Assembly (NCBI GenBank): GCA_963829055.1
Contig: CAWHHI010000020.1
Span: forward strand, 896,001-960,000
Source: an uncultured Gemmatimonadaceae bacterium
Lineage (GTDB): Bacteria > Gemmatimonadota > Gemmatimonadetes > Gemmatimonadales > Gemmatimonadaceae
Direction: 5' to 3'
Length of the DNA stretch: 64,000 nt
Below, piece by piece: positions 2 through 62,296 of the stretch. The number at the start of each line of letters is the position of its first letter. Within the stretch, counting starts at the first letter, position 1. The position numbers were made by a program, and so were the translations under genes. The notes under the pieces were generated by a model that was not told the DNA's origin, ran no database searches, and worked only from the letters and a program-made list of their open reading frames with translations.

Positions 2-1189
2 GGCGGCCACCAGGCGTGCTGTGACCTGACCGCGCGGTAAGCCGGGGCGGCCCGGCAGGATGTTCCAGCCGTTGAACACCACGACCATGTCGTCGTCCGG
101 GAACGTCATCGGGAACTGCCCGCCGAAGCCCGAGCCGCCCCAGATGTACTTCGACCCATCTCGCGGGTCGGGATACAGCCACCACTTGAGACCGTACTTC
201 GGCGCGTTAGGCGCCTCGGCCACCGCGACGGCGGGGGCGATCGAGCTCTTCACCCACTCCGGCGACACGATCTGCTTCCCATCCCACACGCCGTTCTTCA
301 GGAAGAGGTACCAGATCTTCGCGAGATCACGCGACTCGAGGTACAGTCCGCCTTCCGTGTCGATGAGTCCCGACGGACCACGCTTCCAGAACCAGCGCTC
401 GATGCCGATCGGCGCGAACAGGTTCCGCGCGGCGTACTCCTCGATGTCCATCTTCGTCGCGCGACGGAAGATGTAGGCGAGCAGCGCCGACGCGCCGCTG
501 TTGTAGTTCCAGCGCACGCCCGGGTCCTCGGACATCGGACGATCGATCGTGAACTTCACCCAGTCATCGCTCGCCTCCATGCCGACGGCCGCGTTCCTCG
601 GATCGGCGTACGGCAGACTCTCGTTCCAGTCGATGCCGGCCGTCATGGTGAGCAGATGCCGGATCGTCATCTTGCGCTTCCGGTCGTCCACGTTCGCGAC
701 CTTGGACACATCGAAGAACGACAGCACCGGCGTGTCGAGGCTCGGGAACTCGCGGCGCGTAACGGCGACGCCGATGACCACCGACGCGATGGTCTTCGTC
801 ACCGACTGCAGCGTGTGCAGGTCGCCGCGCCGATAGTACGGGTGCCACCACGGGTTGTAATAGTTGTACGGCCCCGTCTCGTCGTGCGCGTTGAGCGCGC
901 CGGTGACGTGCACCGAATCGGCGTACACGCGGTCGTAGTCGTGCGCGTAGCTCTTGTCGTACGCGATCTTCCCGTGACGGATGACGAGCATCCGGTCGAC
1001 GTTCCCGTAGCGGCCCGACGCGATTTCGGCGTCGAGGCTATCGAGGACCTTCGCGTTGAGACCGACGGCCTGCGGCGTGGCGGTCGGCCACGACCTGGTT
1101 GGCCAGGTCTCCCGCGCCGCGGACTGCGCGGCCGCTACCGACGCGGTAGCGATGGACAGTGACGCTACGACGTAGCGGATGGTTCGCAC
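2..1189 (-). CDS. Serine hydrolase, beta-lactamase/AmpC-like family, signal peptide; 3' end runs off the window
   Basis: Not in the ORF track (no stop inside the window). Manual translation from GTG 1189: MRTIRYVVASLSIATASVAAAQ...LHTLQSVTKTIAS (SxxK), WNYNSGAS, GSGFGGQ. Confidence 0.85.
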   Translation of the reverse strand, partial: MRTIRYVVASLSIATASVAAAQSAARETWPTRSWPTATPQAVGLNAKVLDSLDAEIASGRYGNVDRMLVIRHGKIAYDKSYAHDYDRVYADSVHVTGALNAHDETGPYNYYNPWWHPYYRRGDLHTLQSVTKTIASVVIGVAVTRREFPSLDTPVLSFFDVSKVANVDDRKRKMTIRHLLTMTAGIDWNESLPYADPRNAAVGMEASDDWVKFTIDRPMSEDPGVRWNYNSGASALLAYIFRRATKMDIEEYAARNLFAPIGIERWFWKRGPSGLIDTEGGLYLESRDLAKIWYLFLKNGVWDGKQIVSPEWVKSSIAPAVAVAEAPNAPKYGLKWWLYPDPRDGSKYIWGGSGFGGQFPMTFPDDDMVVVFNGWNILPGRPGLPRGQVTARLVAA

Positions 1190-1373
1190 GGTGGATGGAG
1201 GCAAGTGTGGATCGAGATGGACGCGACGAACACGCGATTCGCCGCCAAGCTTCGTCTCGAACCGAACCGGGCGCTAGCAGCCTATTGTGGCGCCTCGCGT
1301 TTGTCGTCCCGAACGTCAGCGATGGACCTTGCGTGAAGTACTCGTGGCAGGCCGGCTACAATGACATCACAGA

Positions 1374-1429
1374 AGGTCCCTCGTCGCTGTCGCTCCTCGG
1401 GATGACCATCGCTGACGCTCGGGATGACA
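1374..1429. repeat. Partial (right-arm) copy of the GTCAT(T/C)CCGAG REP-like repeat family
   Basis: aggtccctcgtcgctgtcgctcctcgggatgac followed by cgctcgggatgaca; resembles the CGCTCGGAATGACA arms of the copies at 2714, 10318 and 35722. Confidence 0.55.
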
Positions 1430-1518
1430 CACGTCCGTTGCCGACCGCACCTCCGCGCGACATACTGTTCGCTCAGCCTCGAGACTCCCCTCGAGACGCT
1501 CCCGGCAACGGAGGTTCC

Positions 1519-2322
1519 ATGCAGCGAAGAGAGTTCGTCGTCCGCTCCGCGGTCGGTTCGGTCGCCCTCGGCGCCGGCAAGATCCCCTTCAGCGGCGAAC
1601 GCGCCGAGTCCACCATGCATTCCGGGAGGGCTGCTACGCGAAAGATCCTCATCGCCGGCGGCGGGTTCGGCACGGCGTTCATCCGCTACATGGCACAGCT
1701 GACCGGCAAACCGCGCCCGAAGCTCCTCTACTTCCCCACCGCGTCCGCCGACAGCCCCAACGGGTCGCTCACGTGGTTTCAGAACTGCGCGCCGCTCAAC
1801 GTCGAGGCGTCGGTACAGAACAGCTTCATCGCGAGCACCCAACAGTCGAGAGGATGGGACGAGGTGCTCCTCTCGGTCGACGGCATCGTCTGCTCCGGCG
1901 GCAACACGCTGAATCAGCAGGCGATCTGGAAAGCGCAGGGCATCGACCAGGTCCTCCGACAGGCATGGGACCAGGGCGTCGTCCTCGGCGGCGCGAGCGC
2001 GGGCTCGTTATGCTGGTTCGAGGAAGGCACCACGGACTCGCGTCCGAAAGAATTGTCGACCGTGCAGTGCCTCGGCTTCCTCAAGGGCAGTCACTCGCCG
2101 CACTACGACCGCGAGCCCGGCCGTCGCCCGCTGTACCAGAAGCTGATCAGCTCGGGGCAGATGAAGCCCGGCTACGCATGCGACAACGACGCCGGCATCT
2201 ACTTCGAGGACAACGAAGTGAAGCGCGTCGTTCATACGCGCCCGGAAGCGAAGGTGTACTACGTGAGCGCCGTCGGCGGTAAGGCTGTCGAGAAGCTCAT
2301 GGAGCCGGAGATGATCTCGTAG
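1519..2322 (+). CDS. Peptidase E / S51 family (class I glutamine amidotransferase-like) with twin-arginine signal
   Basis: GGAGG RBS before ATG 1519; QRREFV Tat motif; PTASAD, SGGNT, GGASAGS nucleophile elbow, SPHYD. Confidence 0.88.
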   Translation: MQRREFVVRSAVGSVALGAGKIPFSGERAESTMHSGRAATRKILIAGGGFGTAFIRYMAQLTGKPRPKLLYFPTASADSPNGSLTWFQNCAPLNVEASVQNSFIASTQQSRGWDEVLLSVDGIVCSGGNTLNQQAIWKAQGIDQVLRQAWDQGVVLGGASAGSLCWFEEGTTDSRPKELSTVQCLGFLKGSHSPHYDREPGRRPLYQKLISSGQMKPGYACDNDAGIYFEDNEVKRVVHTRPEAKVYYVSAVGGKAVEKLMEPEMIS

Positions 2323-2357
2323 GCGTCCAGTCGTCCCATTCCTCGTTGGAGTGACCG

Positions 2358-8035: not shown

Positions 8036-10312
8036 CTCCCGAGATGACTCCCGAGCGCTATGCCGAGGTCAAGGCGATCGTCGCCGGAGCGATCGAGACG
8101 CCGATCGGCGAGCGCGCGCGATACGTCGAGCGCGTATGCGGCGCGGATGACGCGCTCCGCCACGAGGTCGACTCGTTGCTCGCCGAAGCCGACACCAGCG
8201 ACAGCCTGCCGGGCATGCGGGCCGCGGTCGCGGACGCGCGCGTTAGGCTCGTGGCCGACGGCGACTCCGCCCTCCTCTCACTCATCGAACGCGCGCTCGG
8301 CACCCAGTACGAGATCCTGAGGACATTGGGTCGCGGCGGGATGGGCGCGGTCTACCTCGCCCGTGAGCGCGCGCTCGATCGACTCGTCGCCGTGAAGGTG
8401 CTGCGCCCGGATCTCGCTGACGCGCCGGAGAGCCGTGAACGGTTCCGCCGCGAGGCGCGGATCGCCGCGCATCTCTCGCATCCCGGCATCCTGCCGCTGC
8501 ACACGTTCAGCGAGATCGACGGGATCTGGTACTTCGTGATGGGGTACGTGCGTGGCCAGTCGCTGGACGAACGGCTGCGCCTCGAGGGCGCGATGCCGGC
8601 CGGCGACGTGCGACGCATTCTCATCGAGCTCGCGGACGCGCTGGAGTGGGCGCACAGACATGGCGTGATCCATCGCGACATCAAGCCGGCGAACATTCTG
8701 CTGGATGACGAATCCGGCCGAACGATTCTCGCGGACTTCGGCATCTCGAAGATCAAGGACGCGGGTGACGGCCTAACGTTGACCGGCGCGGTCTGGGGTA
8801 CTCCCCACTTCATGTCGCCGGAACAGGGCATCGGCTCCTCCGACCTGGACGAGCGGAGCGACATCTATTCGCTCGGAGCGGTTGCGTACACGATGCTCGC
8901 GGGACGAGAGCCGTTCATGGGCGTGCGCCCGGAGGATCTGATCTTCAGACGCCTCTCGCATGATCCGCCCGCACTGCAGACGGTCGCGCCCTCGGTGCCC
9001 GACGATCTCGCGTCCGTCGTGATGCGGTGCCTCGCGCACGACCGCACGGCGCGGTGGCCGAGCGCGTGGGAGCTGCGCGAGGCGCTCGGTCGGGCGAGCG
9101 CCGCGCCGACGGCATCGTTGCCGGAACCGGTGCGTGATCTCCCGAGCTTCGCGCCCGTACGCCGTGTTCTGGGCGTTCGCGTGGACGATTCTCGCGTTCA
9201 TCACGCCGCGCACGGCCGGCGACCGCACGCTGCTCATGCTGGTCGCGATCTGCGTCCCCGTTGGGCTGCTGCTGCACGTCTGGAACATTGGACGACACGG
9301 GCTCGGGCCGCTCGAGCTGGCGCGCATCGCGTCGTGGCCGCCCGAGTGGTGGGGATTGTGGTGGCCGCGCGCGCTCCGGCGCCCGACCGACCTCTGGACG
9401 CGCCTGCCGTGGCAGGCCAGACTCGTTAGGGTCGTGCTCAGCCTGTTCCTGAGCACGCTTCCGGTGCTGGTGCTCACGCGGCAATGGTTCGTCGAGAACG
9501 GCGAGCCGGGTGGGCGCGAGCTCAGGAATCTCGCGTCGCTCGCCGGAGAGGGCCTGCTCGTGCTGGGGACGACCGCCGTTGTGACGGTCGCGTTCCTGTG
9601 GACGCGGCGACATGGGCTTTCGCTGGCGGATGGCGCACGATTGCTGTTCGGCGCGACGTCACCGTCCCCCGCGTGGAGCACGCCGGGGATCTCGCGACTG
9701 CTCCGCGTGCCGGAGGGAAGCGTCAGGCCACCCGACCGAGACTCGCCGGCGGATCACCGGCGCGCGATCGGCGATCTCGTGACGCTGATTCCGACACAGG
9801 CCAGCGACGTTGGCGCCGAGGCGGCGCGAGGCGCCCAGCGCCTCGTGACGGCCATCGAGCAGTGCGACAGGGAGATCTCGCTGCTGGCGCGCGACGCCGG
9901 CTCCGCGGAGCTCGATCGACTGGAGGCGCAGCTCGCGGCGCTGCAGCCCGCTTCGGACGATGAGAGCGCGGACCGGCGCGACCTCAGACAGCTGCTGAAG
10001 CATCAGCTCGAGGTCATGCGTCGCATGCACGCGCGCAGTGAGACGCTGTCGCATCGGCGAGCGCACCTGTTGCACCTGATGCGCGGCTTGTGGTCTCAGC
10101 TCTGCGTCGTGCGCGCCGCGGCGTCTGCCGGCGCAGCTGGCGCGGCGCGCGACGTGGCGCGGCTGGGTGCATTGTGCGCTGAGATCACCGACGCCATCGA
10201 GATGCCCGCGGCGCGCGAGTCACGGACGGATTCCGGCGGCAGCGCGCAGATCGGGGGCACGAGCGTCGGCACCGAGATCCCGCGGGCAGTCTACGTTCAT
10301 CGGGAACGTTAG
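8032..10312 (+). CDS. Membrane Ser/Thr protein kinase with TM helices and a C-terminal coiled-coil region; frameshift near 9155
   Basis: LGRGGMGAVYLA, VAVK, HRDIKPAN, DFG, GTPHFMSPE. Continues in the 9134..10312 frame (YAVFWAFAW...). Confidence 0.85.
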
Positions 10313-10317
10313 GCGGC

Positions 10318-10447
10318 TGTCATTCCGAGCGAGCGGAGCCGGAGCCCAGGAACGTCGGCAGTGAGGAATCGCGATCATACGCGGTAGAGGGCCCTCTACC
10401 GCGCAGAGTCGCGATTCCTCGACTCGCTGTCGCTCGCTCGGAATGAC
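10318..10447. repeat. REP/MITE-like palindromic element, copy 2
   Basis: TGTCATTCCGAGCG...GAGGAATC...CGCGGTAGAGGGCCCTCTACCGCG...GATTCCTCGAC...CGCTCGGAATGAC, between convergent stop codons. Confidence 0.9.
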
Positions 10448-10455
10448 GCATATCC

Positions 10456-11091: not shown

Positions 11092-11181
11092 GCACGAATG
11101 CTACTCGCCATGCGCGATTGGCGATTGCTGATCAGTCACCCGTCGGGCTCCGTTGAAGCCGCAGTTCGGCTGACACGGCGA

Positions 11182-21116: not shown

Positions 21117-21131
21117 CCAAGAGACCTAACG

Positions 21132-22422
21132 ATGCGACATCACATTGCTAGGACCCCGGTGCGTCGGACGGTGAACCTCCGACGCCTGACGGCCACGGTC
21201 GTGGCCGCGCTCATGACGACGACCGCGGCCTGCGACAGGCTGCTGGACGTCGAGAACCCGGCGAGCGTTCCGATCGAAGCGCTCGACGATCCGGCGCTCA
21301 TGCAGACCCTCGAATCTGCATCGCATCCAATCGTTCCAGTGCGCGTTCCAGCAGTACGTCGGGACGGTTGGCGTACTGTCCGGTGAGTACTGGGTTTCCA
21401 GTAACTTCGTCGACAGCCACCCGTGGGAGTGGCGCGGCATCGTCCAGATCAAGGGCACGGGCGGCAGCTGTCCGAACAACCGAAATGCGACTTCGCTCGG
21501 CTTCTACACGCCCATGCAGCAGGCGCAATTCCAACTCGACGACCTGTTCGAGCGCGTCTCGAAGTTCACCGACGCGGAGGTACCGAACAGGCAGCGCATG
21601 CTGGCCGAGGCCCGCGCGTACTCAGGCTACGCCCATCTCATTCTGGGCGAGACGATGTGCGAGATGGCGCTCGACGGCGGCCCGAAGATGACGAGCCAGG
21701 AAGTGTGGGCAGTCGCCGAGTCGCGGTTCTCGGAAGCGATCACGATCGCGACGGCGTTAGGCACCGGCGCTGACGCCGTCAGCCTGAAGAACATGGCGAT
21801 TGCGGGGCGCGCACGGACACGACTCATGATGGGCAAGCTGGCCGAGGCCGCGGCGGATGCGCGGTTGGTGCCGGCCAACTTCGTGCGCAACGCGGAGTAC
21901 ACGAACTCGAGTCAGGCCCGCGAGAACCGCATGTTCAACATGACGGTCACGAACCGATTCATCTCCGTGACGCCTGCCTACCAGAACCTGACGGTCAACG
22001 GGGCTGCCGATCCCAGGGTCCCCGCGGTTAATGCGAATGTATTGGGTCAGGACGGCGCGACGCCGTACTGGCGGCAAACCAAGATCACGGCCGTCAACTC
22101 ACCGTTGCCGATCGCATCGTACAAAGAGTCGCAGCTGATTCTCGCCGAGGCGTCGACGGATCAGGCGGAGAAGCTCGCGGCGCTCAACCGCGTTCGCGCG
22201 CTTTACAGCATCGCGCCGCTGACCGGTACGGTCACCGACGACATCATCATCGAGGAGCGGAGACGCGGGCTGTTCAGCGAAGGACAGCGCTATACCGACA
22301 TGCTCCGCAAGAAGCTGCCGTTCCAGACGGGCACGAACCGGAAGGGCCAGACGTACAGCGATCTCACGTGCATCCCGCTGCCCGACGTCGAGACGCAGAA
22401 CAACCCGAACTTCTCGCCCTGA
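21132..22422 (+). CDS. SusD/RagB-type lipoprotein; frameshift near 21320
   Basis: Lipobox TAAC-DRLLDVENP; GRARTRL; YKESQLILAEA; EERRRGLFSEGQR; IPLPDVETQNNPN. Confidence 0.85.
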
Positions 22423-24255: not shown

Positions 24256-25458
24256 CGGGAGCGACCGCGCCCTCCACGGCGCCGGCCCCGAGCCCGCATC
24301 GCTCCGACGAGATCGCCGTCCTCGCGCCCACGGGCAGCGACGGGCCGGTCGCGCAGCGCGTGCTCGGCAAGTGGGACCTGCAACGTCGTCGCGTACCCCA
24401 CGATGGACGCGCTCTCGGCCGCGATCGAGCGCGGGGTCGGCGCGGTCCTCCTGGCCGAAGAAGCGCTGCGGACCGGCGCGCTGGAGCGACTGGTCGCCGC
24501 GTTAGGCACGCAGCCGTCGTGGTCGGACGTGCCGATCGTGGTCCTCACCGCCGAGGACGAGTTGTCGGGCGTGATCGCGAGGGGCGTCGAGGCGCTCGCG
24601 AAGCGCGGCAACGTCACACTGCTCGAGCGGCCGGTCCGCGTCGCCACGCTCGTGACTGTCGTCCGCACGGCCCTTCGCGCGCGCATCCGGCAGTACGACC
24701 TCCGCGAGCATCTCACCGAGCTCCAGGCCGCACGCGACGCTGCGGACGAAGCGCGAGGCGCCGCCGAGCGTGCGAACCGCGCGAAGAGCGAGTTCCTCGC
24801 CATCATGAGTCACGAGCTTCGCACGCCGCTCAATGCCATCGGCGGCTATGCGGAGCTCATGGAGCTCGGGATCCGCGGGAACGTCACGCCGGAGCAGCGC
24901 ATGGACCTCGATCGCATCCAGCGCAGCCAGCGTCACCTGCTCGGCCTCATCAACGGCGTGCTGAACTACGCGCGCGTCGAGACGGGCAACGTTCGCTACG
25001 ACGTCCGAGACGTTTCCGTCGACGAGCTGCTCGCGACCTGTGAAGCGCTCGTGGCGCCGCAGGCGCGCGCCAAGCGCATCGGCCTCGATGTACCACCGTG
25101 CCCGCACGGGCTCACGGCGCGCGCCGACAGCGAGAAATTCCAGCAGATCGTGCTGAACCTGCTCACGAACGCGATCAAGTTCACCGACAGCGGCGGGGTT
25201 GTCGGCGTCACGTGCGAGGAGGCGCAGGACTCGGTGATCGTGCGTGTGACCGACACCGGCTCTGGCATCGCCGAGGACAAGCTGGCGACAATCTTCGACC
25301 CGTTCGTGCAGGTCGATTCGGGACTCACGCGCACGCGCGAAGGCGTGGGTTTGGGCCTCGCCATCAGTCGCGACCTGGCCAAGGGCATGCGCGGCGACCT
25401 CACGGTCACGAGCGTACTCGGTCAGGGGAGCACGTTCACGCTGACGTTACCGCGTTAG
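24252..25458 (+). CDS. Histidine kinase with an N-terminal receiver-like domain, coupled to KaiC; frameshift near 24385
   Basis: GTGA overlap; VLAPTGSDG; QPSWSDVP; TLLERPV; MSHELRTPLN; NLLTNAIKFT; DTGSGI; GVGLGLAI. Confidence 0.87.
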
Positions 25459-25463
25459 GCCCG

Positions 25464-28005: not shown

Positions 28006-29103
28006 ATGAATGACGTTGTGAACGACGCGCGAATTCGCGTTGCGGCGGCATGCTGTGCGTTGCTCCTGCTACTCGGTCAAAGCCGAGCGGCGGTTGCCCA
28101 GGGAGGGGCCGCGCAGCAGACCGGCCGCGCGCCAGGCCCCAGGCTCCATCACGTGGGGCTCAACTCCGTGGACCCCGCCCGCGCCATCGAGTGGTATCTC
28201 CGCGTGTGGCCGGCCGCAAGAAGGACCGAAGTTGCGGGCTACCCGGCGGTCGAGGGCGAGATGCTCGTCGTGTTCAACAAGGTTGATCGGCCGCCGCCGG
28301 GCGCGTGGCGCGACGACCTCCACCGTGCGGAGCCGCAGAGCGCGTTCTGGCACATTGGCGCGATGACTAACACGACCGACCTCGCGGCGCGATTACAGTC
28401 CGTCGGCATCAAGCACCTCCCGTTGTTCGTCGGCCCGCAGGACACGCAAACCGTGTGGCGATCCGGACTCGCGCCATACGCGGGCACGCTGACCGCGAAG
28501 CAACTGCCCACGGCAGCCCCAGCGCCGCCACGTGATGGCGGCTTCAGCTACGTCGTGGCGCCTGACGGCGTGCTGTTCGAGCTCACCGGCGGACCGGGCA
28601 CGAAGGACTCGTTCTCGCACATGCACTTCTACCACGAGCAGCCACTCTGCGCCGCGAACTGGTACGTCGAGCATCTCGGGATGGAGTTGCCACCCGTGCG
28701 CGACTCGAGCGGCGTGGAAACTCCGCGGAAGCCGTACGCCCCGTGCGAGGTGAGCTACGGCGAAGCCGGCTGGCCGTCGCTCGAGCCCATCGGCACGATC
28801 CGTCAGCCTTCGGGTGGCGTGCGGTTCGAGAATGGCTCGATGTCGTGGTATCCGCGTCAGTGCGTGAGCGACCGGTGCGGCCGCGATCAGCCGCTCGTGC
28901 GCTCGCGGGGACAGGCGCTGGACCACGTCGCGTTCGCGGTCGACAGCCTCGATGCCCTCGTCGCGAAATTGCGGCGCGACGGCGTCAAGATCCTGGAAGG
29001 GCCGTACAAGTTCGGTGACGCGCGGGCGTTCATGATCGAGGATCCGGACGGCCTCGCCATCGAGCTGATCGAGCGACAGGGAGCGTCGCCGCGAACGCGT
29101 TAG
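28006..29103 (+). CDS. Secreted VOC (glyoxalase/bleomycin-resistance) family protein with tandem domains
   Basis: LHHVGLN; FWHIGA; PDGVLFEL; FSHMHF; LDHVAFAV; DPDGLAIELIE. Confidence 0.85.
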   Translation: MNDVVNDARIRVAAACCALLLLLGQSRAAVAQGGAAQQTGRAPGPRLHHVGLNSVDPARAIEWYLRVWPAARRTEVAGYPAVEGEMLVVFNKVDRPPPGAWRDDLHRAEPQSAFWHIGAMTNTTDLAARLQSVGIKHLPLFVGPQDTQTVWRSGLAPYAGTLTAKQLPTAAPAPPRDGGFSYVVAPDGVLFELTGGPGTKDSFSHMHFYHEQPLCAANWYVEHLGMELPPVRDSSGVETPRKPYAPCEVSYGEAGWPSLEPIGTIRQPSGGVRFENGSMSWYPRQCVSDRCGRDQPLVRSRGQALDHVAFAVDSLDALVAKLRRDGVKILEGPYKFGDARAFMIEDPDGLAIELIERQGASPRTR

Positions 29104-29529
29104 GCAGGAGCCGGTAATCGTGACGGTGGCGTTGCCCGTTGCCACGGCTGCCGCCGTCGTCACGACGAGAGTGCTCGTCGTTCCCGTCGTGATGCTCGGA
29201 TTCATGGTCGCGGTAACCCCGGCGGGAACGCCTGTGACGGCGAGCGTCACGCTCCCGGCGAACCCGCCACTTCGAACGATGGCGATGTTCGCCTCGCCCG
29301 TGCCCCCTTGCAGGACCGGAACAGGCGCCTGCGCGGCAGTCAATGTGAACGTGCCGCCCGCGGCGGGTGTGGGCTCCGTCGCGCCGTCGCCACAGGCCTG
29401 AACACCAATGGCGACACCGAGCAGGAGGCCTAACGCGCGCGGCAGCGCGCATGCACGCTGGGTCCGAGTGCTCCCGACCGAGGCCTGCTGCGGAAGCACG
29501 AATGCGAATTGCGGCACTCGGGATCTCAT
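29104..29529 (-). pseudogene. Lipoprotein with one Ig-like repeat, apparently 3'-truncated at the VOC stop
   Basis: GGAG RBS; VQAC lipobox; RSGGFAGSVTLAVTGVPAGVTA...TVTITG, then reads without a stop into the antisense of the VOC gene. Confidence 0.6.
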
Positions 29530-33978: not shown

Positions 33979-33995
33979 GTGTGTTGGCTCCCTCG

Positions 33996-34517
33996 TTAGG
34001 TGCCCGGCGGTAGCGCGCCCTGGTCGCCGCGTCCGGTCGGGGCTTCGAGTGATTCCTTCGCCTCAGCCGCCGCGAGCGCACGCTCCGCCAACGCGAGCTC
34101 GAGCTCACCGGCAAACTCGCGACCCAGTTCCAGATCCGCGCCGCGCAGTCGAAGCGCCAACTCCGCGGGGTGATCCAGGCTGAGGCCCGCCGCGCCGGCC
34201 ACTTCCTCGAACGCGCGGAGGTCTGCTGCCGTCAGCACCAGGTGCATGACCGGCGGCCAGCCCCATCGGCGCCGTACGGTCGCGCCGGCTACGGCGCTCA
34301 ACGGCACCGTTACCTCGCGCACTGGCTCCACTTCCTTGTCGGTCCGGATCTGCCAGCCGACGCGCTCGGTGGACCGCGCCACGCGCCACTGGATGTGGAG
34401 CTCGTCACCGTCCAGCCGGAGCAATCCGTGCACCGTCTCCTTCGTCGACGTGATCTCGAAACCCACCACGTCGTGCTTGCGGTGGATCACGAACGGAACG
34501 GCAGCGGAGTGCGGCAT
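33996..34517 (-). CDS. Hypothetical protein
   Basis: Coherent 173-aa ORF (HGLLRLDGDELHIQWR...LTAADLRAFE) fitting the operon. Confidence 0.7.
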   Translation of the reverse strand: MPHSAAVPFVIHRKHDVVGFEITSTKETVHGLLRLDGDELHIQWRVARSTERVGWQIRTDKEVEPVREVTVPLSAVAGATVRRRWGWPPVMHLVLTAADLRAFEEVAGAAGLSLDHPAELALRLRGADLELGREFAGELELALAERALAAAEAKESLEAPTGRGDQGALPPGT

Positions 34518-37338: not shown

Positions 37339-37570
37339 GAACGGCGCGAAATCCCGAACGGCGCCAAATCCCGAAGAGCGCGAAATCCCGAAGAGCGCCA
37401 GATGCCGAAGAGCGCGGAATCCCAGACGGCGCCCAACGGCGGTGCCGTTCCGCTCTTTGTCGCCGTTCGGGATTTCGCGCTGTCTGGCATTTCGCGCGTT
37501 CGGGATTTCGCGCCGTCTGGGATTTGGCGCCGTTCGGCATTCCGCGCCGTTCGGCCCCTGCGCCGTTTCA
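37339..37570. repeat. 17-bp tandem repeat array followed by its inverted array
   Basis: About 5-6 copies of GAA(C/G)(G/A)GCGC(G/C)AAATCCC, then about 6 copies of GGGATTT(C/G)GCGCCGTTC. Confidence 0.88.
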
Positions 37571-46280: not shown

Positions 46281-49266
46281 ATGACCACTGCCGCCCGCGC
46301 CTGCCCGTCCTGCCATACTCCGCTTCCGGACGAAGCGCATTTCTGCCTGCACTGCGGTACGGCGACGCCGACCGAGCCGGGCGTTCCGGCTCGCACGGCG
46401 GCGACCGACGTGAGCGAGATCGTCCGGGTGCGGAAGGCGCTCGCCGGCCGAGGCTACGCGATCGAGCGCGTACTCGGCGAAGGCGGTATGGCGACCGTCT
46501 ACCTGGCCACCGACGTGAAGCACCGCCGCCACGTCGCGGTCAAGGTGATGCGTCCCGAGCTGGCCGCGACGTTAGGCGCGGAGCGGTTTCTCCGCGAGGT
46601 GGAGATCGCGGCACAGCTCAGCCATCCACACGTCCTGCCCGTGCACGACTCGGGAGAATCGGACGGCGTGCTGTTCTACGTCATGCCGTACGTGGAGGGC
46701 GAGTCGCTGCACGAGCGAATCAAGCGTGAGACGCAGTTGCCGGTGGAAGAAGCACTCCGCATCGCGCGCGAGGTTGGTGAGGCGCTCGCGTATGCCCATG
46801 GCAAGAAGATCGTCCATCGCGATATCAAGCCGGCCAACATCATGCTCTCGGCCGGCCACGCGCTCGTCGCGGATTTCGGGATCGCGCGAGCCGTAGGCGG
46901 CGGGGCGGCGATCACACAGACCGGGTTCGCCGTCGGCACCCCGCAGTATATGAGTCCCGAGCAGGCCAGCGGCTCGGCCATGGTCGACGGGCGGAGCGAC
47001 GTGTTCGCGTTAGGCTGCGTCGTGTACGAGATGCTGGCCGGCGAGCCGCCATTCACCGGGCCCAACGCGCAGGCTATCGTCACTCGCAGCCTGACCGAGG
47101 CGCCGCGCTCTCTCACGGCCACGCGCGAGGGCATCTCGCCGGCGATCGAAGCGGTGGTCACTCGCGCGCTGACGAAGAACCCTGCCGACCGCTGGCAGAC
47201 CGCAGCAGAGTTCGCCAAGGCGTTAGGCGGGGCCGAGGATCAGCTGCGGCTCGGTCCCATCTCGGGCGCACGGACGCCGGCGCCCATGGCGGTCGCGGGA
47301 TCGGGGCCGGCGGCGGCGACGGTCTGGACGACGTTCGGCATCGCCGGCGTGATGGCGTTGGGTCTCATCTTCGGTCTGGTGCGGCGCTGGGGGCTTCCCG
47401 TCTGGGCGCTCGGCGTCGCGGTGCTCTTCCTCGCGATCGGCGCGCTGGTGCTCGTCGTGACCGGGAAGATGGAAGGCAGAAGGACCGCGGGCGGCAGCGT
47501 CACGGGGCCCGCGGCGCTGTTCACCTGGCGGAACGCCACCCTGGGTGGCGTCGCCGCGTTAGGTCTGTGGGCCGTCCTCGCCACCGTCCTCGTGTTTCGC
47601 GGCCCGGCCAGCGCGTCGGAGCCCAGTTCGGGAGTCAGGCTCGCGGTGCTGCCGTTCGAGAACCGCGGTGCCGCGGACGACAACTACTTCGTGGACGGCG
47701 TCGCCGACCAGGTCCGCGGAAAGCTCATGGGCCTCAAGGGCTTCCAGGTCACGGCCCGCACCAGCTCCGATCAGTACAAGGCGACGAAGAAGACGCCGCA
47801 GGAGATCGGGACCGAGCTCGGTGTCGACTACCTGCTCACGTCCACCGTGTCGTGGGCGAAGGCGGCCGGCACGAAGGGCCGAGTGCAGGTGGTGCCGGAG
47901 TTGATCGACGTGAAGACGGGCGCCGGAAAGTGGCAGCAGAGCTTCGACGCCGAGCTGACGGACATCTTCCAGGTGCAGGGCGACATCGCGACGCAGGTGG
48001 CTGGCGCGCTCAACGTCGCGCTCGCGCCGGCCGAGAAGCAGGAGATCGCCGAGCGGCCGACGAAGAATCTCGCCGCGTACGACCTGTTCCTCAAAGCCAA
48101 GGCTCTGACTGGGAACGACCCGGCGACCCTCCGACAGGCCGTGGCCTACAACGAGCAGGCGGTCGCGCTCGACTCGACGTTCACGGACGCGTGGATCGGG
48201 CTGGGAGTCAACCTGTCGAACCTGTACTTCATGGGCACGCCCGACCCCGATCTCGCGACCCGCGCTCGAAGGGCGGTGGACCACGCGACGGCGCTCGCGC
48301 CGGACAAGGTCGGCACCCGTTCAGCGCGAAGCACGTACTTCAACAGCGTCGCCAACGACCTGACCGCGGCCGACGCGGAGGTCACCGAAGCGATGCGCGT
48401 GGCGCCTAACGACGCCGGCGTGCTGCGGATGGCATCGGGCATGGAGGCACGACGCGGTCGCTGGCAGGAATCGCTGGCTCACGCCGAGCAGGCCATGCGC
48501 CTCGATCCACGCTCCAGAGGGTCGAAGATCACGCTGTACGACAAGCTGGCTCCGCCTGCACAAGTTCCCGGAGGCGGTCGTGCTGGGTCGCGAGGCCATG
48601 GCCGACCGCCCGCGGGACCTCAACACGGCGAACAGCCTCGCCCTTCTGTATCTGATGCAGGGCGACCTCGCGTCCGCGCAGGCGGTGATCCGGAACGTCC
48701 CGGCCGACGTGCCACGCACCGCGGTCGCGACGTACTTCGCGATCTACCAGGATCTGTACTGGGTGCTGGAAGACGACGACCAGAAGCTCGTCATGCGCCT
48801 CGGCCCCTCGATGTTCGACAACGACCGGGCCACGTGGGCGGCGGTCCAGATGCAGATCGCGACGCTGCGTGGGGACAAGACGCGCGCACGGGCATTCGCG
48901 GACACGGCGCAGGCGGAGTTCACGAAGCAGCTGCAGCTGACGCCTAACGATCCACAGCAGCACATCTTCCGCGGGCTCGCACTGGCCACGCTGGGCCGGA
49001 AAGACGAGGCCATCGCGGAGGCGACGCGTGGGGCGAGCTTCAATCCGCTCAGCCAGGATCAGGTCAACGGCCCGTACTACCAGCACCAGCTGATGCGAGT
49101 CTACCTCCAGGCGGGGGAGAACGAGAAGGCGATCGATGTGTTGGAGGAGCTACTCAAGATCCCCTACCTGCTGACACCGGCGCGGATCCGAATCGATCCC
49201 ACCTTCGCACCGCTCAAGGGCAATCCGCGGTTCGAGAAGCTGCTCAAAGGAGCAGAAGCGTCATGA
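46281..49266 (+). CDS. Zn-ribbon - Ser/Thr kinase - 3TM - TolB_N-like - TPR protein; frameshift near 48550
   Basis: CPSC/FCLHCG; LGEGGMATVYLA; HRDIKPAN; DFG; GTPQYMSPE; LAVLPFEN; ends DPTFAPLKGNPRF. Confidence 0.9.
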
Positions 49267-49386
49267 ACAGCGAACGGCTCGAAGGGCCGTGCGCTCTGTA
49301 GCGCCGTCCGCCCTGTCCATGTCGAGTGTCCTCACTACTGCCCTGGCGGGTCGCTACCGCAAGCGCGCCGTCGACGCGGCCAACTC

Positions 49387-50448: not shown

Positions 50449-50507
50449 GCGTCGGCGAGCCGCTCGCTTCCGCGAACAAATCTTGAACGTTCCCTAACGA
50501 GGCCGTC

Positions 50508-52454
50508 ATGGGCTTTCCTATACCCGCAGCATTGCTCCTCGCGACGGCGTTGTTTCAGGAATCCGTCACGCCGCCACCGGCGCGGCTCCCGCTTCCGCGC
50601 CCGGTCGCCAACGCGCCGATCGCTCAGGTCAATGACAACCGACAGCCCGCCGGCACTCTGGCGAACGGGCACGCTGACGCTGTCGCTCGACATCGTCGAA
50701 GCGGCGTATCAGGCCGAAGGCGAGCACGATCCCGTCGTGCGCGTGCTGGCGTTCGCCGAAACGGGCAAGGCGCCGCAGGTACCGGGCCCACTGCTCCGCG
50801 CGCCGCTCGGCACCGTCGTGCGATCTCACGGTGCGGAACCGCTCGGACTCCGCGGTGATGTTCGGCGGCCTTCGACAATCGCTCCCAGCGAGCCGTGACA
50901 CGGTGCACATCGCTGCCGGCGCAACACGCGAGATCACGTTCAGGCTCGACAAGGTCGGAAACTTCTTCTACTGGGCCGCGCTCGAGGGTCTCAGCACGTT
51001 CGAGGACCGCTACTGGCTCGATTCGCAGCTCACGGCAGCGTTCATCGTCGACGCGCCTAACGCGTCGCCTTCCGCGAACGAGCGCGTCTGGCTGATCACC
51101 GAGTGGTTTTTCCAGCCGCCGAAAGTGCGCGAGTTCGAATCGGCACTGACGTTCAACGGAAAGGCGTGGCCGTACAACGAGCGCCTGACGTTCACGCAGG
51201 GCGACTCGGTTCACTTCCGCATGATCAACGCGGCAGCGGTCGAGCATCCGCTGCACCTGCACGGCTTCTACTTCCGCGTGACGCGCCATGGCGGCACAGG
51301 CGCGGACACCGTGGTCGCCGCCTCGCTGCAGCCGCTGCAGAACATGCGGGTGATTCCGATCGGCGGGTCGCTGTCGCTCTCGTTCCTCCCGACGACACCG
51401 GGCAACTGGGTCTTCCACTGTCACTTCGCGGGCCACGTCGGCGAGATCGTGAGCCTGCACGACGCAACCGATGCGCAGCACGTGCCTAACGCTGGCGGCC
51501 ACGCGATGCCGGAGCACGACAAGCCCGGCGGCCACACGATGCGCGGACTGGTGATCGGCATGCACGTCACGCCCGCGCCCGGCTACAAGGAGCCGGAAGT
51601 CGCGAATCGGCGGACGATCAATCTGCTCATCCAGAAGCGGCCGAACGGGCTCGTCGGAGGACAGACCGCGTACGGATTCGTGCTGCAGAAAGGCGCCGAA
51701 GTGCCAGCGAGGGACTCCGTCGTGCTTCCGGCACCCGTGCTCGAGCTCAAGCGCGGCGAGCCGGTTCGCATCGTCGTGAAGAACAACCTCGACGAGCCGA
51801 GCGGCGTGCACTGGCACGGACTGGAGATCGAGAGCTATCCGGATGGCGTCGCCGGACTTCAGCGGCATCGGCGACAGGATCATGCCGCCGATTCCGCCGG
51901 GCGAGTCGTTCGCCGCGGAGTTCACGCCGCCGCGGAGCGGCACGTTTCCCTATCATTCGCATCTGCACGAGATGCGGCAGATCGGCTCCGGGATGTACGG
52001 CGCGATCATCGTCAGCGATACGCCGCGCGATACCACGCGCGATCACGTGATCGTCGCCGGCGGCGGCGGGCTTCCTGTGTTCTACAAGCAGGCGCCCACG
52101 TTCCTGCTGGTGAACGGCGAGCGTGAATCCGGCGCCCGTGCGTCATGACCGTCGGGGACACGCAGCGCCTGCGCATCGTGAGCATTCACGCCGACGAGGT
52201 GCTGCATTTCAGATTCGGCACCGACGGCGAGTGCGACCCAGTGGACGCCGCTGGCGCGGGATGGCGCCGACCTCCCGGCCGCGTTGCGCACCCGGGCAGT
52301 CGCCATCACCGAGATGGGGCCGGGCGAGACCGCGGATTTCACGTACGTGCCGACTCAGCCTGGTGACATGATGCTCGAGGTGTGGATCCCGAGCGGCATG
52401 CGGATCGTGCTGCCCGTGATAGTGCGAGCTCGCCAAGTGGCGGCGAAGCCTTGA
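50508..52454 (+). CDS. Multicopper oxidase-like protein with four cupredoxin domains; several frameshifts
   Basis: VPGPLLR; HPLHLHGF; GNWVFHCHFAGH; VHWHGLE; GTFPYHSHLHE...GMYGAIIV; ends VAAKP* at 52454. Confidence 0.82.
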
Positions 52455-52542
52455 TGAGCGGCGTGGTGGGCGGACTCGTCGGGGTGCCGGAATTCGAGCG
52501 CATCGTCGCGAAAGCGGCGCGGCGCGTGGCGGAGTTCGGCGC

Positions 52543-52546
<4 letters not shown>
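52454..52546 (+). pseudogene. 30-aa remnant of a kinase-TPR C-terminus
   Basis: MSGVVGGLVGVPEFERIVAKAARRVAEFGA*; near-copy of 50382-50448; coupled by TGATG upstream and ATGA downstream. Confidence 0.7.
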
Positions 52547-54913
<2,367 letters not shown>

Positions 54914-55007
54914 CGCCAAGATCCACATCGCACCGTAGACCGCCTAACGGGCGCTGCAACGGCTCGTCCACCTGCCTGAACCAACCCAGCCCTTCAGAGG
55001 CTTCAAA

Positions 55008-55283
55008 ATGTCCGGCACGTCTCCAGAACTCGACGCCATCATCACCGATCGCTACCGCATCGAACGACAGTGGCTCGCGGATGGAACGATCGCGTTCACG
55101 GTGTGGGGCAGCACCGACGCGGCCACACTGCGCCAGTTGACCGGACCCGGTCAGGCAAAGCCGATCGGCGCGCTCGGTCACGTCGCGAACCTGGTCAGCC
55201 TCTCGAAGGCCCTCGCGCGCGGCACGATCATGTGGCGCGAGTATCGGGGCGACGCGTGGATGTACCGGGTGGTGAAACCCTAA
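55008..55283 (+). pseudogene. Kinase start fused in-frame to a beta-propeller-like tail
   Basis: MSGTSPELDAIITDRYRIER joined to QWLADGTIAF...REYRGDAWMYRVVKP*. Confidence 0.65.
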
Positions 55284-55286
55284 CCA

Positions 55287-55949
55287 GTGTCAGATCCCTT
55301 GGATTCGAGATCCGTACGTAAGCGGACAACTGTCCAGTCAAAGGCTCTGACCCCTTGGCACACAGGGCATCGCGCAATCGTGGTGTGGTTGCTCCTGTTG
55401 CTTTCCTCGGCAACAGCGGCGGCCCAGGGCAAGTCGCCCGCGTCGATATCGCGCGCCTGGGACAGTGTCGAATCGATTTACGTCGTACGGTCGTGGCGGG
55501 AGTCCCGCATCGCACCGACGGATTTCTGTAGTGCGGCGCGCGCAGGGTTCCCCGGTGCGACCGTCGAGGATCGATACACGTTTCGCTCTGTAGGCACGAG
55601 CGCCGATGGAACAATTCGCGACGCGAACGTGAGAGTGGTCGGTCAACTGCACGCATGCTTCGCGATGCCCACCGACTCCGGCCCGATTGCGTTCTACGCT
55701 GATGGTTCGCTCGGTGAGGTCACGTTCACCGGTCGCGGTGAGTGTCGGACCGCGCGCACGGGCTTCCCAGAGGACGGACTGCTGATGCAGCGCTGCTTCC
55801 TTCTGCTCGAGGGCCTGAGCCACGGGCTCATCGGCGGTCACCTCACGACGAACACGATCAACTCCCGTCAGCCGCTCGGCGGGGTAACGGACCCCGCGGG
55901 CTATACGCAGTCGTCGATTGCCACCGTACGACTCTGGCGGCGTCGATGA
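55287..55949 (+). CDS. Secreted hypothetical protein, Cys-containing; start uncertain
   Basis: Hydrophobic signal AIVVWLLLLLSSATAAAQ; GGHLTTNT; YTQSSIATVRLW. Confidence 0.7.
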   Translation: MSDPLDSRSVRKRTTVQSKALTPWHTGHRAIVVWLLLLLSSATAAAQGKSPASISRAWDSVESIYVVRSWRESRIAPTDFCSAARAGFPGATVEDRYTFRSVGTSADGTIRDANVRVVGQLHACFAMPTDSGPIAFYADGSLGEVTFTGRGECRTARTGFPEDGLLMQRCFLLLEGLSHGLIGGHLTTNTINSRQPLGGVTDPAGYTQSSIATVRLWRRR

Positions 55950-56699
55950 GCGCGACCCTCGAGCGCCTGAGTGCGTCGCTCGACGGTCGTTACGGCATCG
56001 AGCGTGAGCTTGGGCAGGGCGGGATGGCGACCGTGTACCTCGCGCGCGACGTCAGGCACGACCGCAAGGTCGCGATCAAGGTCCTCACGCCCGAGCCTGC
56101 TCACGTCGTCAGGCGCCGAGCGGTTCTTGCGGGAGATTACGACGACGGCGAACCTGCGACACCCGCACATCCTGCCGCTCTACGATTCCGGTCAGGTGCC
56201 CGCGTCCGGGAGCGATGCCGACGCGGTCGTCTATTACGTGATGCCGTTCATCGACGGCGGCACGCTCCGTGACCGTCTGGACCGCGACAAGCAGTTGCCC
56301 ATCGACGAGGCGCTCGCCATCGCCCGCGAAGTCGCCGACGCGCTCGGTTACGCGCACCGGGAGGCTGCCGCGCGGACGATCGCACTGTCAGGGCCCGACT
56401 ACCCCTTCAGCCAGGCGGTCGACGGATACGTCAAGGCGAAGGCCGGTGACACGGCGGGCGCGCGACGCGTGCTGCGAGAGATGGGAACGGCGCCGCGCCT
56501 CCCCCAGCGGGCGCTGGTGTACGCGGCGCTCGGCGAGCGCGACTCCATGTACGTGATGTTCGAGCGCGCGATCGACGCGAAGGACCCAGATGCGATCTGG
56601 TTCCTCAACGCGATCCCGTCGCTGCGTCCGATGCGCCAGGACCCCCGCTACCAGCAATTGCTCGAGCGGATGGGCCTCCCGAAGGAGTGGCGCCGATGA
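55946..56699 (+). pseudogene. Kinase N-lobe fused to terminal TPRs (catalytic core deleted); frameshift near 56095
   Basis: GRYGIERELGQGGMATVYLA...VADALGYAHR joined to EAAARTIAL...LRPMRQDPRYQQLLERMGLP; no HRD, DFG or APE. Confidence 0.75.
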
Positions 56700-56920
56700 C
56701 GATCGCGAGCGACTTCGTGCTGCAGACGAATCCATCGAGCCTGTTCGAGCAGGATCGTCGCTCGACACATGACACGTGGCTGCTCCAGTACACGCGGGGC
56801 GAGCGCTACGACAAGCTGCGAAAGGACCCGCGTGGGCGCGGCGTCTCCCGGCTGACGGAGAGCACTGCACGTATCCGCGCCCTCCACGGCTCCGGAGCTG
56901 CCGGCAGCGACGCTAGGTGA
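56696..56920 (+). pseudogene. Remnant of a kinase-TPR C-terminus
   Basis: ATGA-coupled; HDTWLLQYTRGERYDKLRKDPR resembles the D-x-L-R-x-D-P-R tails of the paralogs. Confidence 0.5.
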
Positions 56921-57071
56921 CTGGCGATACGGCGCTGACGTCGGCTGACCGGTCCAACTTCAGGGCCTCGAGTGCGACCTTTCGGTCATGGCGGACGTCG
57001 CGGGCGGGATACACCGTGAGCTTGGCGCCCTCGGCCGCGAGACGTTCTACGGCCGAGCGGCCGGCGAGTCG
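56913..57071 (-). pseudogene. Decayed inverted kinase N-lobe fragment
   Basis: Manual translation RLAGRSAVERLAAEGAKLTVYPARDVRHDRKVALEALKLDRSADVSAVSPVT* aligns to LAGRYAIERxLGEGGMATVYLARDVRHDRKVA.K. Confidence 0.78.
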
Positions 57072-57121
57072 GCGTCCAGTGAGTCAGCGGTCTGGACGCT
57101 AGTGGTCGAGGACGCAATACG

Positions 57122-59565
<2,444 letters not shown>

Positions 59566-59639
59566 TGTCACTCGATAGCCACGGCGAGGTTACTCCACGC
59601 GCACACGCCTGACGCGACTTCGCGGTGGACGTGGGTAGG

Positions 59640-59770
59640 CTACCGACTCCAGCGTAGAAGCTGGTCGATCGCCAGGTCCGGCGTGAGACGCGTCGGGTTG
59701 CTGCCGTCGTCATTCATCACGTAAATCTCGCCACCAGCGTCGTCCCGCAGGCTGCGAAAGGCAATCCGCT
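59640..59770 (-). pseudogene. 3' remnant of a TolB/PD40 repeat gene
   Basis: RIAFRSLRDDAGGEIYVMNDDGSNPTRLT...RWSR*, paralogous to the 60554..61561 protein. Confidence 0.75.
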
Positions 59771-59771
59771 T

Positions 59772-60528
59772 ATGGAAGCGATGCGCGATGCCGAGCCGGG
59801 CATGTACGAGTACGAGCTGGAGGCGGCGGCGGAGTACGTGTACAAGCGCGGCGGCGCATACGGCGAGTCGTACTTCCCGCTCATCGCCGATGGGCCCAAC
59901 ATGCCGTACACACACTACCATAAGAATCGCGCGCGGCTCGAGTCGGGCCATCTCGTGCAATTCGATTGGGCGCCCGATATCGCGAACTACACGACCGACG
60001 TGACGCGCGTGTTCCCCGCGAACGGGAAGTTCACGCCGCGCCAGGGCGAGTTCTACACGATCTATCTCCGCCTGTACCAGGCCCTCATGTCGTCGATCCG
60101 CGTGCACGTGACCGCGCGCGAGATTATGGACAGCGCCGTGGTAAGAATGGATCGGATCATGGGTGCCTATCGATTCACGGATCCCGCAGATCAAGGCCAC
60201 CGCGGAGGGGTTCGTGAACCGCTATCGGCGGAATCCGAACGCGCCGGCGCGCGGCGGAGGCTCGTTAGGTCACAGCGTCGGGATGGAAGTCCACGACGTG
60301 CGGAATCCCACCCCGACGCTCGAGCCGGGCTACGTGTTCACGATCGAGCCACAGATGACCATGGAGAGTGGCGAGCTGTCGGTGCGGCTCGAGGACATGA
60401 TTCTCATTACCGAAACGGGCTATGAGAATCTCTCCGCGTTCGTGCCCATCGAAATAGTGGACATCGAGCGGCTCATGACGCAGCGCGGGCTCGGCGCATA
60501 CCGGTTGAAGGGAACGCTGGGGCGTTAG
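59772..60528 (+). pseudogene. Xaa-Pro aminopeptidase (M24) catalytic half, 5'-truncated; frameshift near 60185
   Basis: PGMYEYELEA; FDWAPD...[35 protein letters not shown]; no N-terminal domain. Confidence 0.8.
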
Positions 60529-60553
60529 GCATCCCCTCGCACCGTTGCTTCCA

Positions 60554-61561
60554 CTACCGGCTCCAGCGGGGGAATTCGTCAGCCCTGTTGCTCACCATGA
60601 GGCGCGTCTGCTCCGTACCGTCGGCGTTCATCACGTAGAGCTGTACGTTGCCATCGCGCCTGCTCTGGAAGACGATCTGCGATCCGTCAGTCGACCACGA
60701 CGGAAGCCCGTCGGACGTGGTCGCGCCGAATGTGAGCCGTGTGAGCCCCGAGTTGTCGAGGTTGAGCGTGTAGACGCCGTCCGAGCCCGAGGAATTGGAG
60801 ACGCTGAACGCGAGCCGTCGGCTGTGCGGGTCCCAACTCGGGTAGTCGAGCGTGCCGTCCTGAAACGTGAGCCGGCTGACGCCGGTGCCGTCCGTCTGCA
60901 TGACATACAACTCGGTCCCGAAGACTGGCTGATCGCGCGTGCTCACGAAGGCGATCTGACGTCCGTCGGAGGAGAACGTGGGCTGTCCGTCGAACGTGTT
61001 GTCGTTGGTCAGCCGAACAACCTGGCTGCCGTCGGCGTTCATCACGTAGATCTCGAAGTCAGGGCCCCTGGCCACCGCTGGATCGGCGGCATCGCGGTTG
61101 CTCGCGAACACGATCTGCTTGCCGTCCTTCGACCAACCCGGACTAACGTTGCTGGCGGTTCCGTTCGTCAGACGAACGACCTCGGTACCGTCGGCGTTCA
61201 TCACGTAAATCTCGCCAAGCGGATTGTCACGGTTGCTCACAAAGGCGATCCGCTTTCCGTCGGGGGACCAGACCGCCAACCGGTCCGTGCCGGGCGCGTT
61301 CGTCAACCGCTTCGGGTCGGTGCCATCGGGCTTGACGCTGTAGATCTCCAGGCTTGTTCCATCGCGATCGCTCGAGAACAGAATTCTCTGGTTGCTGCCG
61401 CTGACGTTCTTGCCAAGGTTGGGCGACGACGGCGATTGCGCCGTCGGCATGGGAGCGGCCGCATCCGAGCAGGCGTCGAGGCTGCCGGCGAGCGGCAACA
61501 GCAACGCGATGGTTGGCACGAATCTGCTCACGCGGCGAACACGATATCTCAGCATGTCCAT
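60554..61561 (-). CDS. TolB-like/PD40 beta-propeller lipoprotein
   Basis: LDAC lipobox; repeated WSPDGKRIAFVSNRD...EIYVMNADG. Confidence 0.9.
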   Translation of the reverse strand: MDMLRYRVRRVSRFVPTIALLLPLAGSLDACSDAAAPMPTAQSPSSPNLGKNVSGSNQRILFSSDRDGTSLEIYSVKPDGTDPKRLTNAPGTDRLAVWSPDGKRIAFVSNRDNPLGEIYVMNADGTEVVRLTNGTASNVSPGWSKDGKQIVFASNRDAADPAVARGPDFEIYVMNADGSQVVRLTNDNTFDGQPTFSSDGRQIAFVSTRDQPVFGTELYVMQTDGTGVSRLTFQDGTLDYPSWDPHSRRLAFSVSNSSGSDGVYTLNLDNSGLTRLTFGATTSDGLPSWSTDGSQIVFQSRRDGNVQLYVMNADGTEQTRLMVSNRADEFPRWSR

Positions 61562-61651
61562 GATCTGGTTGGTTGAAGGAAGTGGCGCTATGCGCGTTAT
61601 GTCCCATCACGCCGTCGCCGGTGGAATCCGGACACCCCAGGAGTGTGCGCC

Positions 61652-62224
61652 ATGAGTCTTCTCGGGCACGCCGATGACGCGGCCGCCATGCAGCGGCTCG
61701 CATTCGCCCTTGTCGATCGTTACCGCATCGAGCGCGAGCTCGGGGCTGGGGGCATGGCCACCGTGTACCTCGCGCACGACATTCGGCACGATCGCCCGGT
61801 CGCGATCAAGGTCCTTCATCCCGAGGTGGCCGAATCGTTAGGCCGCGAGCGATTCCTGCGCGAGATCCGCCTGGCCGCGAAGCTCACGCACCCCCACATC
61901 CTGCCGCTGCACGACTCGGGCGAGGGCGACTCGCGGCCCTATTTCGTGATGCCCGTGATCGAAGGGCAGACTCTCCGCGAGCGGCTGCAGCAGGAGGGCC
62001 AGCTGTCGGTGGAGTCGGCGGTGCGGCTCGCGTCCGAAGTGGCCGACGCACTCGACTATGCCCACCGGCGCGATGTCGTCTACCGCGACATCAAGCCGGA
62101 GAACATCCTGCTGCACGAAGGCCACGCGATCGTCGCCGACTTCGGCGTCGGTAAGGCACTGACTGCGGTTCCAGGGTCTGTTGACCCGGTCGTAGAGACC
62201 ATCGAGCTCCCGCGTGCTGCCTAA
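61652..62224 (+). pseudogene. Ser/Thr kinase truncated shortly after DFG
   Basis: DRYRIERELGAGGMATVYLA; YRDIKPEN; DFGVGKAL, then about 20 unrelated residues and TAA; no continuation seen downstream. Confidence 0.8.
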
Positions 62225-62296
62225 CGGCTCCAGCGGGAAGCGCTTGCGGCGGTGACTCGGGCCCGGTAGCATGGCTCGAACCCAGCAAGGCAAGCG

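Follow-up and report, generated by a model that had tools for sequence, protein, structure and literature searches.

To our knowledge, the well-known families of hyper-abundant genome words are only the DNA uptake sequences (DUS) of Neisseriaceae, the uptake signal sequences (USS) of Pasteurellaceae and HIP1 (GCGATCGC) of cyanobacteria. The literature describes USS as conserved and as spaced at even intervals (PMC1939737, PMC2397512), gives tracts of 1–7 kb for Neisseria and Haemophilus (PMC7811141, PMC2397512), and proposes for HIP1 a nucleoid role (PMC5861425) and, more recently, a role in uptake (PMC13756078). In copy number, use of both strands, conservation, spacing and dialects, the word described below behaves like an uptake sequence (PMC2397512, PMC1939737, PMC2817400, PMC7811141), of which it is a candidate member; the comparison with HIP1 also drew on PMC4390886. 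Here we describe a word of this kind, CGTTAGG, commonly extended to the 8-mer CGTTAGGC, in a stretch of 64,000 nucleotides from an uncultured Gemmatimonadaceae bacterium. This stretch (the window) is G000:C20:896001-960000, where G000 is the source genome, a 7.78-Mb assembly of 20 contigs that is 86% complete.

The first-pass annotation of the window had reported about 70 copies of the word. The count was exact (39 CGTTAGG and 31 CCTAACG), all ten coordinates quoted were correct, and 58 of the 70 copies were extended to CGTTAGGC, in line with the claim that most are. Dinucleotide shuffles of the window yielded 3.31 ± 1.69 copies (n = 100, maximum 8), and the related words CGTTAGC and GCTAACG, with four copies in the window, were not similarly enriched. 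In the whole of G000, 6,391 copies of the 7-mer were found against 249 expected from an order-2 Markov model. The word was present on all 20 contigs (0.64–1.09 per kb) and on both strands, with an overall density of 0.8 per kb, and ranked first among both 7-mers and 8-mers; enrichment of the 8-mer was 40- to 160-fold once the word had been masked from the null. Genes were called with a simple in-house caller (74% coverage, truncated starts), and the 3,998 high-scoring ones were used. These contained 3,437 copies, 16–29 times the 117–213 obtained in ten synonymous resamplings. As the counts lie far above the codon-aware null and the control words are rare, neither outcome named as evidence against a specific signal was seen. 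The observation of a hyper-abundant word is confirmed, and the proposal that it is a selected signal present throughout the genome, much like uptake sequences, is supported. A flank matrix of the G000 copies revealed no consensus around the word, the copies had no hairpin-forming tendency, Rfam contained no match, and no description of the word was found in the literature on this group.

Within G000 genes, the word was used in all four stop-free reading frames. Its density was 0.72 per kb within called genes and 1.12 per kb outside them. It contained 60% of the TTA codons in called genes (1,363 of 2,269), 990 of 1,585 PN[DEAGV] tripeptides, 1,363 of 4,717 [ASPT]LG tripeptides, and 123 of 1,061 TAG and 164 of 508 TAA stop codons. 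In the window, six stop codons came from the word, as had been claimed: five TAG or TAA on the plus strand and one TAA on the minus strand (33996). The copies in the window, and those discussed individually, are as follows.

205..62226, both strands: dispersed single copies of CGTTAGG (n = 70; 39 plus, 31 minus), without shared flanks
10307..10313, plus: word supplying the TAG stop of ORF 9134-10312
21125..21134, plus: CCTAACG with an ATG immediately after it; the SusD-matching ORF 21514-22422 lies downstream
25453..25459, plus: word supplying the TAG stop of the histidine kinase ORF 24403-25458
29098..29104, plus: word supplying the TAG stop of the glyoxalase-domain ORF ending at 29103
33994..34000, minus: word supplying the TAA stop of the minus-strand ORF 33996-34517
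46570..46576, plus: copy in a Ser/Thr kinase gene; the same column has the word in two of six paralogous stretches and one-letter variants in two, with no indel at the site
47008..47014, plus: kinase ALG written GCG TTA GGC; the column has the word in four of five paralogues (also at 12961, 49988 and 53141)
60523..60529, plus: word supplying the TAG stop at 60528
62220..62226, plus: CCTAACG supplying the TAA stop at 62224

The copy said to sit just before a susD-like ATG, at 21125, does have an ATG immediately after it; the ORF that matches SusD begins at 21514, so the link between that ATG and susD is only putative. As the word and its one-letter variants occupy the same columns in paralogues, it originates where it stands, through substitutions: point changes at synonymous sites create it, where the code allows. 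At the level of the proteome, PN[DEAGV] had an observed/expected ratio (O/E) of 1.96 against 1.22 for the reversed tripeptide in G000, an imprint not confirmed by orthologue comparison (17 versus 21; reverse, 14 versus 31). Near the rRNA genes, the 6.5 kb leading up to one 16S signature had no copies and the vicinity of the other had six, the operon limits being putative.

Conservation was assessed at 17 congener loci aligned to G000 at about 70–88% identity. Of 200 occurrences in the alignments, tallied from both sides, 118 were identical, compared with 0–37% for ten control words that included preferred-codon words. Among conserved tripeptides, for which the counts are small, the word was present in both, one or neither in 14, 15 and 58 cases for xLG and in 11, two and six cases for PN[DEAGV]. 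Retention outside the word was 27% for TTA, 14% for CCT and 54% for four-fold sites (30,251 codons). A mutation-driven origin had been put forward as one possibility; because the sites are conserved between congeners, gain-only mutation bias does not fit. The copies are protected against loss. Sharing across genera was low (six of 26 foreign sites). The word was less used in low-GC3 genes (0.17–0.22 versus 0.36) and scarce in low-GC gaps, regions for which recent acquisition is suggested by composition only. It was absent throughout an apparently foreign 49.6 kb (G000:C6:5440-55038). Four read runs contained near-identical contigs, and no copy was altered among the 40 of 1,606 differences listed, from which we draw no inference.

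The copies also keep their distance from one another. Gaps in the window averaged 899 bp with a minimum of 209 bp, and none of the 69 was below 200 bp, against about 14 expected. Across the genome, the 8-mer showed a pair correlation that rose from 0.18 at 12–50 bp through 0.25 (50–100 bp), 0.38 (100–150 bp), 0.51 (150–200 bp) and 0.76 (200–300 bp) to 0.87 at 300–400 bp. Occupancy of xLG sites dropped with decreasing distance to the closest other copy, from 41% down to 2.6% within 50 bp, and was equal in all four classes of neighbour side and orientation (4–5% below 75 bp). A second site within about 200–300 bp is strongly disfavoured, whatever its side or orientation, and this orientation-free redundancy points to reading on double-stranded DNA. 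Congeners showed the same avoidance (nine gaps below 200 bp versus 19.1), and copy counts on contig C20 were under-dispersed (variance/mean 0.59–0.71 at 1–10 kb; control about 1). The Gemmatirosa sample (63 sites in 100 kb) gave no clear answer.

Avoidance of nearby word copies was used as an assay of variant function. It was evident for TGTTAGGC (0.35), CGTTATGC (0.47), CGTTAGGT (0.39), CGTTAGGG (0.42) and GGTTAGGC (0.41; few sites), and not for CGTCAGGC, CGTGAGGC and CGTTCGGC (1.05–1.10). The functional variants that share the avoidance are described by YGTTAKGB. CGTTATGC and TGTTAGGC are predicted to be active and CGTCAGGC and CGTTAGAC inactive. Central one-off variants were near the null (O/E 0.64–3).

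The distribution of the word across the family is bimodal and patchy. Genomes with at least 200 8-mers and a count above the reversed control were called carriers; 60 of 350 family genomes, from 21 of 60 genera, qualified, with densities of up to 1.3 per kb, and nearly all others had fewer than 100 8-mers. (The denominators include 11 unpublished genomes in the 350-genome set and four in the phylum set, every one of them motif-poor and none needed for any claim.) All six congeners of G000 had 3,400–6,700 copies. Genus g123 was split, with 3,200–4,100 copies in five genomes and 9–66 in six. Outside the family, among 200 genomes of the phylum, genus g55 alone was clearly rich (232–1,446 7-mers). 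Carriers were dispersed over a one-gene tree whose deep nodes had weak support. One carrier is cultured: Gemmatirosa kalamazoonensis KBS708 had 31 copies in 50 kb of one megaplasmid and 32 in 50 kb of the other, against 1.8. Carrier G050 used the dialect CGTNAGGC (4,641 CGTSAGGC versus 655 control); all four letters were enriched at its position 4, where carrier G104 favoured C and T. CGTVAGGC was at or below control in three of four motif-poor g123 members and at 1.9-fold in one, and no alternative words of their own were evident in motif-poor genomes, at about 20 kb each, among the matches listed. A scan of viral sequences for two copies returned at least 122 loci, most of them cassette arrays or chance occurrences. 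Of the 30 listed loci with at least five copies, 27 matched no G000 protein.

The explanation we favour, with a probability of roughly 45%, is that CGTTAGG(C) serves, without being methylated, as a self tag of the uptake type and is kept by drive or selection. A sequence-specific protein would read the word on double-stranded DNA, most likely at the uptake step of a type IV pilus competence machine. Fragments bearing the word would be preferentially taken up and recombined, and this preference would drive new copies in and purge lost ones. The redundancy range of 200–300 bp would then reflect short donor fragments or tracts, and the patchy distribution and the CGTNAGGC dialect would arise where the reader was gained, lost or altered. 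G000 encodes PilA, PilB, PilT, PilM, PilQ, ComEC, DprA and a FimT-like pilin, some of these genes being frameshifted in the assembly. The FimT-like pilin is an orphan (G000:C8:164914-165331) whose C-terminal SRxGRVRR is kept across the order. The GRVRR motif is tied to DNA binding by FimT (PMC8897410), and the conserved C-terminus suggests that competence is widespread in Gemmatimonadales.

Several results weigh against an uptake tag. The redundancy range is far below the 1–7 kb tracts of Neisseria and Haemophilus. No reader that tracks the word was found among the families tested for presence: ComEC (73 of 76 genomes), HHH_3 (ComEA; 76 of 76), the FimT-like pilin (67 of 76 and 30 of 30) and DprA (five of five) all occurred in motif-poor genomes as well, the uptake machinery being spread through the whole order. 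The best FimT column separated 38 carriers from 34 others at 0.57 (shuffles 0.26–0.34), with kin not independent, and failed as a reader signature inside the split genus g123. Genes shared with other genera were not richer in the word (0.30/0.54, n = 241) than the rest (0.29/0.63, n = 3,757), the core being defined from partial loci. G050 showed no avoidance (1.16 at 12–100 bp; 385 sites in 265 kb). Terminator-type inverted pairs were lacking, with five opposite-strand neighbours closer than 25 bp among 6,371 gaps, and no report of natural transformation in the phylum was found in the literature.

Other candidate readers were also rejected. Second fimT-pilVWX operons occurred in carriers and non-carriers alike, and type IB topoisomerase (TopIB) was found in 20 of 23 carriers and 10 of 17 non-carriers. 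DUF4956 and an unnamed neighbour, from among the genes adjoining the FimT and methyltransferase loci, were present in only five of 13 carriers, and the charge of a basic-looking pilin at C16:947.6k was due to a frameshift. G000 has two type IB topoisomerases (C4:50478 and C19:85120), and the family was present in 30 of the 40 genomes searched.

A cytoplasmic sequence-specific binder, acting in nucleoid bridging, loading or protection and served by about one site per few hundred bp so that closer sites are redundant, is an unlikely alternative that nonetheless deserves weight. It would suit the side- and orientation-independent redundancy, the under-dispersed counts, the apparently equal use of the word in shared and other genes, and its presence on both Gemmatirosa megaplasmids, and a nucleoid role has been proposed for HIP1 (PMC5861425). 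It sits less well with the lack of periodicity (neither at 10–11 bp nor at 0.1–100 kb, peaks on the three largest contigs lying within the permutation range), the 404 gaps of more than 3 kb that G000 tolerates, the five sixths of the family that do without the word, and the failure of TopIB to track it. We also entertain, as a speculation that would more readily fail than hold, that a horizontally moving intracellular reader of an unmodified double-stranded octamer, identical to the integron attC core, imposes a genome spacing of about 300 bp, via neither uptake nor methylation, and has been repeatedly gained, lost and retuned (from CGTTAGGC to CGTNAGGC) in Gemmatimonadales. If true, such a spacing reader may explain why attC ends often read GTTAGGC.

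Site-biased repair or gene conversion without methylation, in which the word-bearing strand of a heteroduplex prevails unless an intact site close by sets the direction, would account for the conservation, the near-null central variants and the short, tract-like range. We regard it as improbable: none of the candidate genes tested tracks the word, G050 lacks the range effect, and we know of no enzyme that performs methylation-free site-biased repair of this kind.

GTTRRRY is the consensus name of the R' and R'' boxes of integron attC sites, and the word had been equated with it. The letters do match a common attC end: CGTTAGGC forms the R' end of attC hairpins in the cassette arrays of four viral contigs (a fifth gave none), and the partner ends of these hairpins equal variants enriched in G000. 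The equation did not extend to GTTRRRY in general, as GTTAGAC (O/E 0.69) and GTTGGGC (0.66) were not enriched in G000. R''-like partners were not enriched upstream of the copies either (405 versus 563 in the control; 6,384 sites). As the genomic copies lack paired R''/R' boxes (40–150 nt, hairpin), they are not attC. That a tyrosine recombinase, IntI or a relative, creates or uses single boxes throughout the genome is very unlikely, and for IntI the idea is largely refuted. IntI passes the cut-off in G000, and does so in 32 of 68 genomes, many of them motif-poor, independently of the word; it was not found in carriers G050, G104, G204 and G205, and the G050 dialect loses the GTT triplet. The IntI of G000 (C20:191800-208958) scores just above the TIGR02249 cut-off, and upstream of it lie three or four attC-like hairpins. 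Across the order, IntI is common. The viral-class contigs L201, L213, L237 and L273 carry integron cassette arrays with 3–11 predicted attC hairpins.

A HIP1-like word produced by a cognate methyltransferase with methyl-directed repair appears highly improbable, and the proposed link to a methyltransferase was not supported. The edge letters of the word are tolerant, and an Eco57I/IIG-type methyltransferase gene lies beside an SNF2 helicase gene in all carriers searched. This N6 enzyme of about 1,075 aa (C8:73551-78400) was the single DNA methyltransferase in a motif scan of G000; its DPACGSG and NPPW motifs are intact, and its gene overlaps that of the helicase. Of 76 genomes, 65 have one copy of it, whether or not they carry the word, and the pair was rejected as reader, being independent of the word and having no discriminating column beyond shuffles. 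No C5 methyltransferase (PF00145) was found in the five carriers searched, and PF01555 was present in one of the five and absent from four. The method behind the KBS708 methylome detects 5-methylcytosine (5mC) poorly. Its N6-methyladenine (m6A) motifs are only RGATCY, ATGCAC and CCAGN7TCA; the word is not among them, with 5mC and unusual marks outside the reach of the data (PMC3974934). ATGCAC was not enriched in G000 (2,438 versus 2,462–2,834). The IIG-SNF2 pair itself (loci L067–L106) is nearly order-wide and hardly found outside the order, unusually stable and vertical for a normally mobile type.

A polar signal of the Chi, KOPS or AIMS type, to which a non-palindromic 8-mer might belong, can be set aside on these data, as the annotation had argued for Chi and KOPS, since 1,888 copies were leading and 1,792 lagging (51.3%; eight arms assigned by GC skew) and opposite-strand copies were equally redundant.

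Some further features of the window and genome were recorded. At least six paralogous Ser/Thr kinase genes occupy window positions 46281-62224, several with apparent frameshifts of the sort that a long-read assembly is expected to have; their closest matches in a plasmid search were Gemmatirosa plasmid proteins (60%). A KaiC-like ATPase gene followed by the histidine kinase gene lies at 22675-25458. REP-like intergenic inverted repeats with the ends GTCATTCCGAGCG and GTCATCCCGAG number 650 and 453 copies genome-wide. Those in the window, together with other repeats, are:

1298-1433, 2765-2838, 10313-10450 and 35740-35860: REP-like inverted repeats
37335-37556 and 16347-16724: 17-bp tandem units facing their own inverted copies, plus a second imperfect repeat pair

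ARAGORN predicted a putative tRNA-Pro(AGG), rare in bacteria, and a putative tRNA-Sec in G000. The contig-end stretches C6 5440-55038, C6 600-623 kb and C11 0-50 kb are motif-free; the genes sampled there were housekeeping genes, one gene best matched a mycobacterial-type model, and the stretches are probably contaminant or chimeric sequence.

The word would constitute an independent fourth family of hyper-abundant genome words, in an abundant soil group. Beyond what DUS, USS and HIP1 offer, it comes with close relatives that have and lack it, a dialect that is degenerate, a redundancy length that can be measured and a carrier in culture. The split genus, the dialect, the redundancy length and the cultured carrier make the question of drive versus function directly testable. 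In carrier genomes, the word can also readily be used as a marker, both in binning and to detect DNA that is foreign or misassembled.

Among known systems, Chi, KOPS and AIMS share with the word an asymmetric, over-represented octamer; unlike them, it has no replichore bias and its orientation is irrelevant. Integron R'/R'' boxes have identical letters and a similar variant set, whereas the copies described here are single, unpaired, inside genes and on both strands, and IntI does not track them. HIP1 is likewise a hyper-abundant octamer with tolerant first and last letters, conserved beyond codon effects and with alternative forms in some lineages; the present word differs in not being palindromic, in having no cognate methyltransferase found and no long-range (10–90 kb) periodicity, and in being patchy within one family where HIP1 is phylum-wide. 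Compared with DUS and USS, the word is shorter (7–8 letters), is written with rare codons, has no flank consensus and belongs to another phylum; it forms no inverted terminator pairs, appears not to be core-enriched, is redundant over 200–300 bp only, and has no ComP-like reader found. Like DUS and USS, it occurs about once per kb, is non-palindromic, lies on both strands and inside genes, is conserved, is more evenly spaced than random in G000 and its congeners, and has lineage dialects in genomes where competence genes are present.

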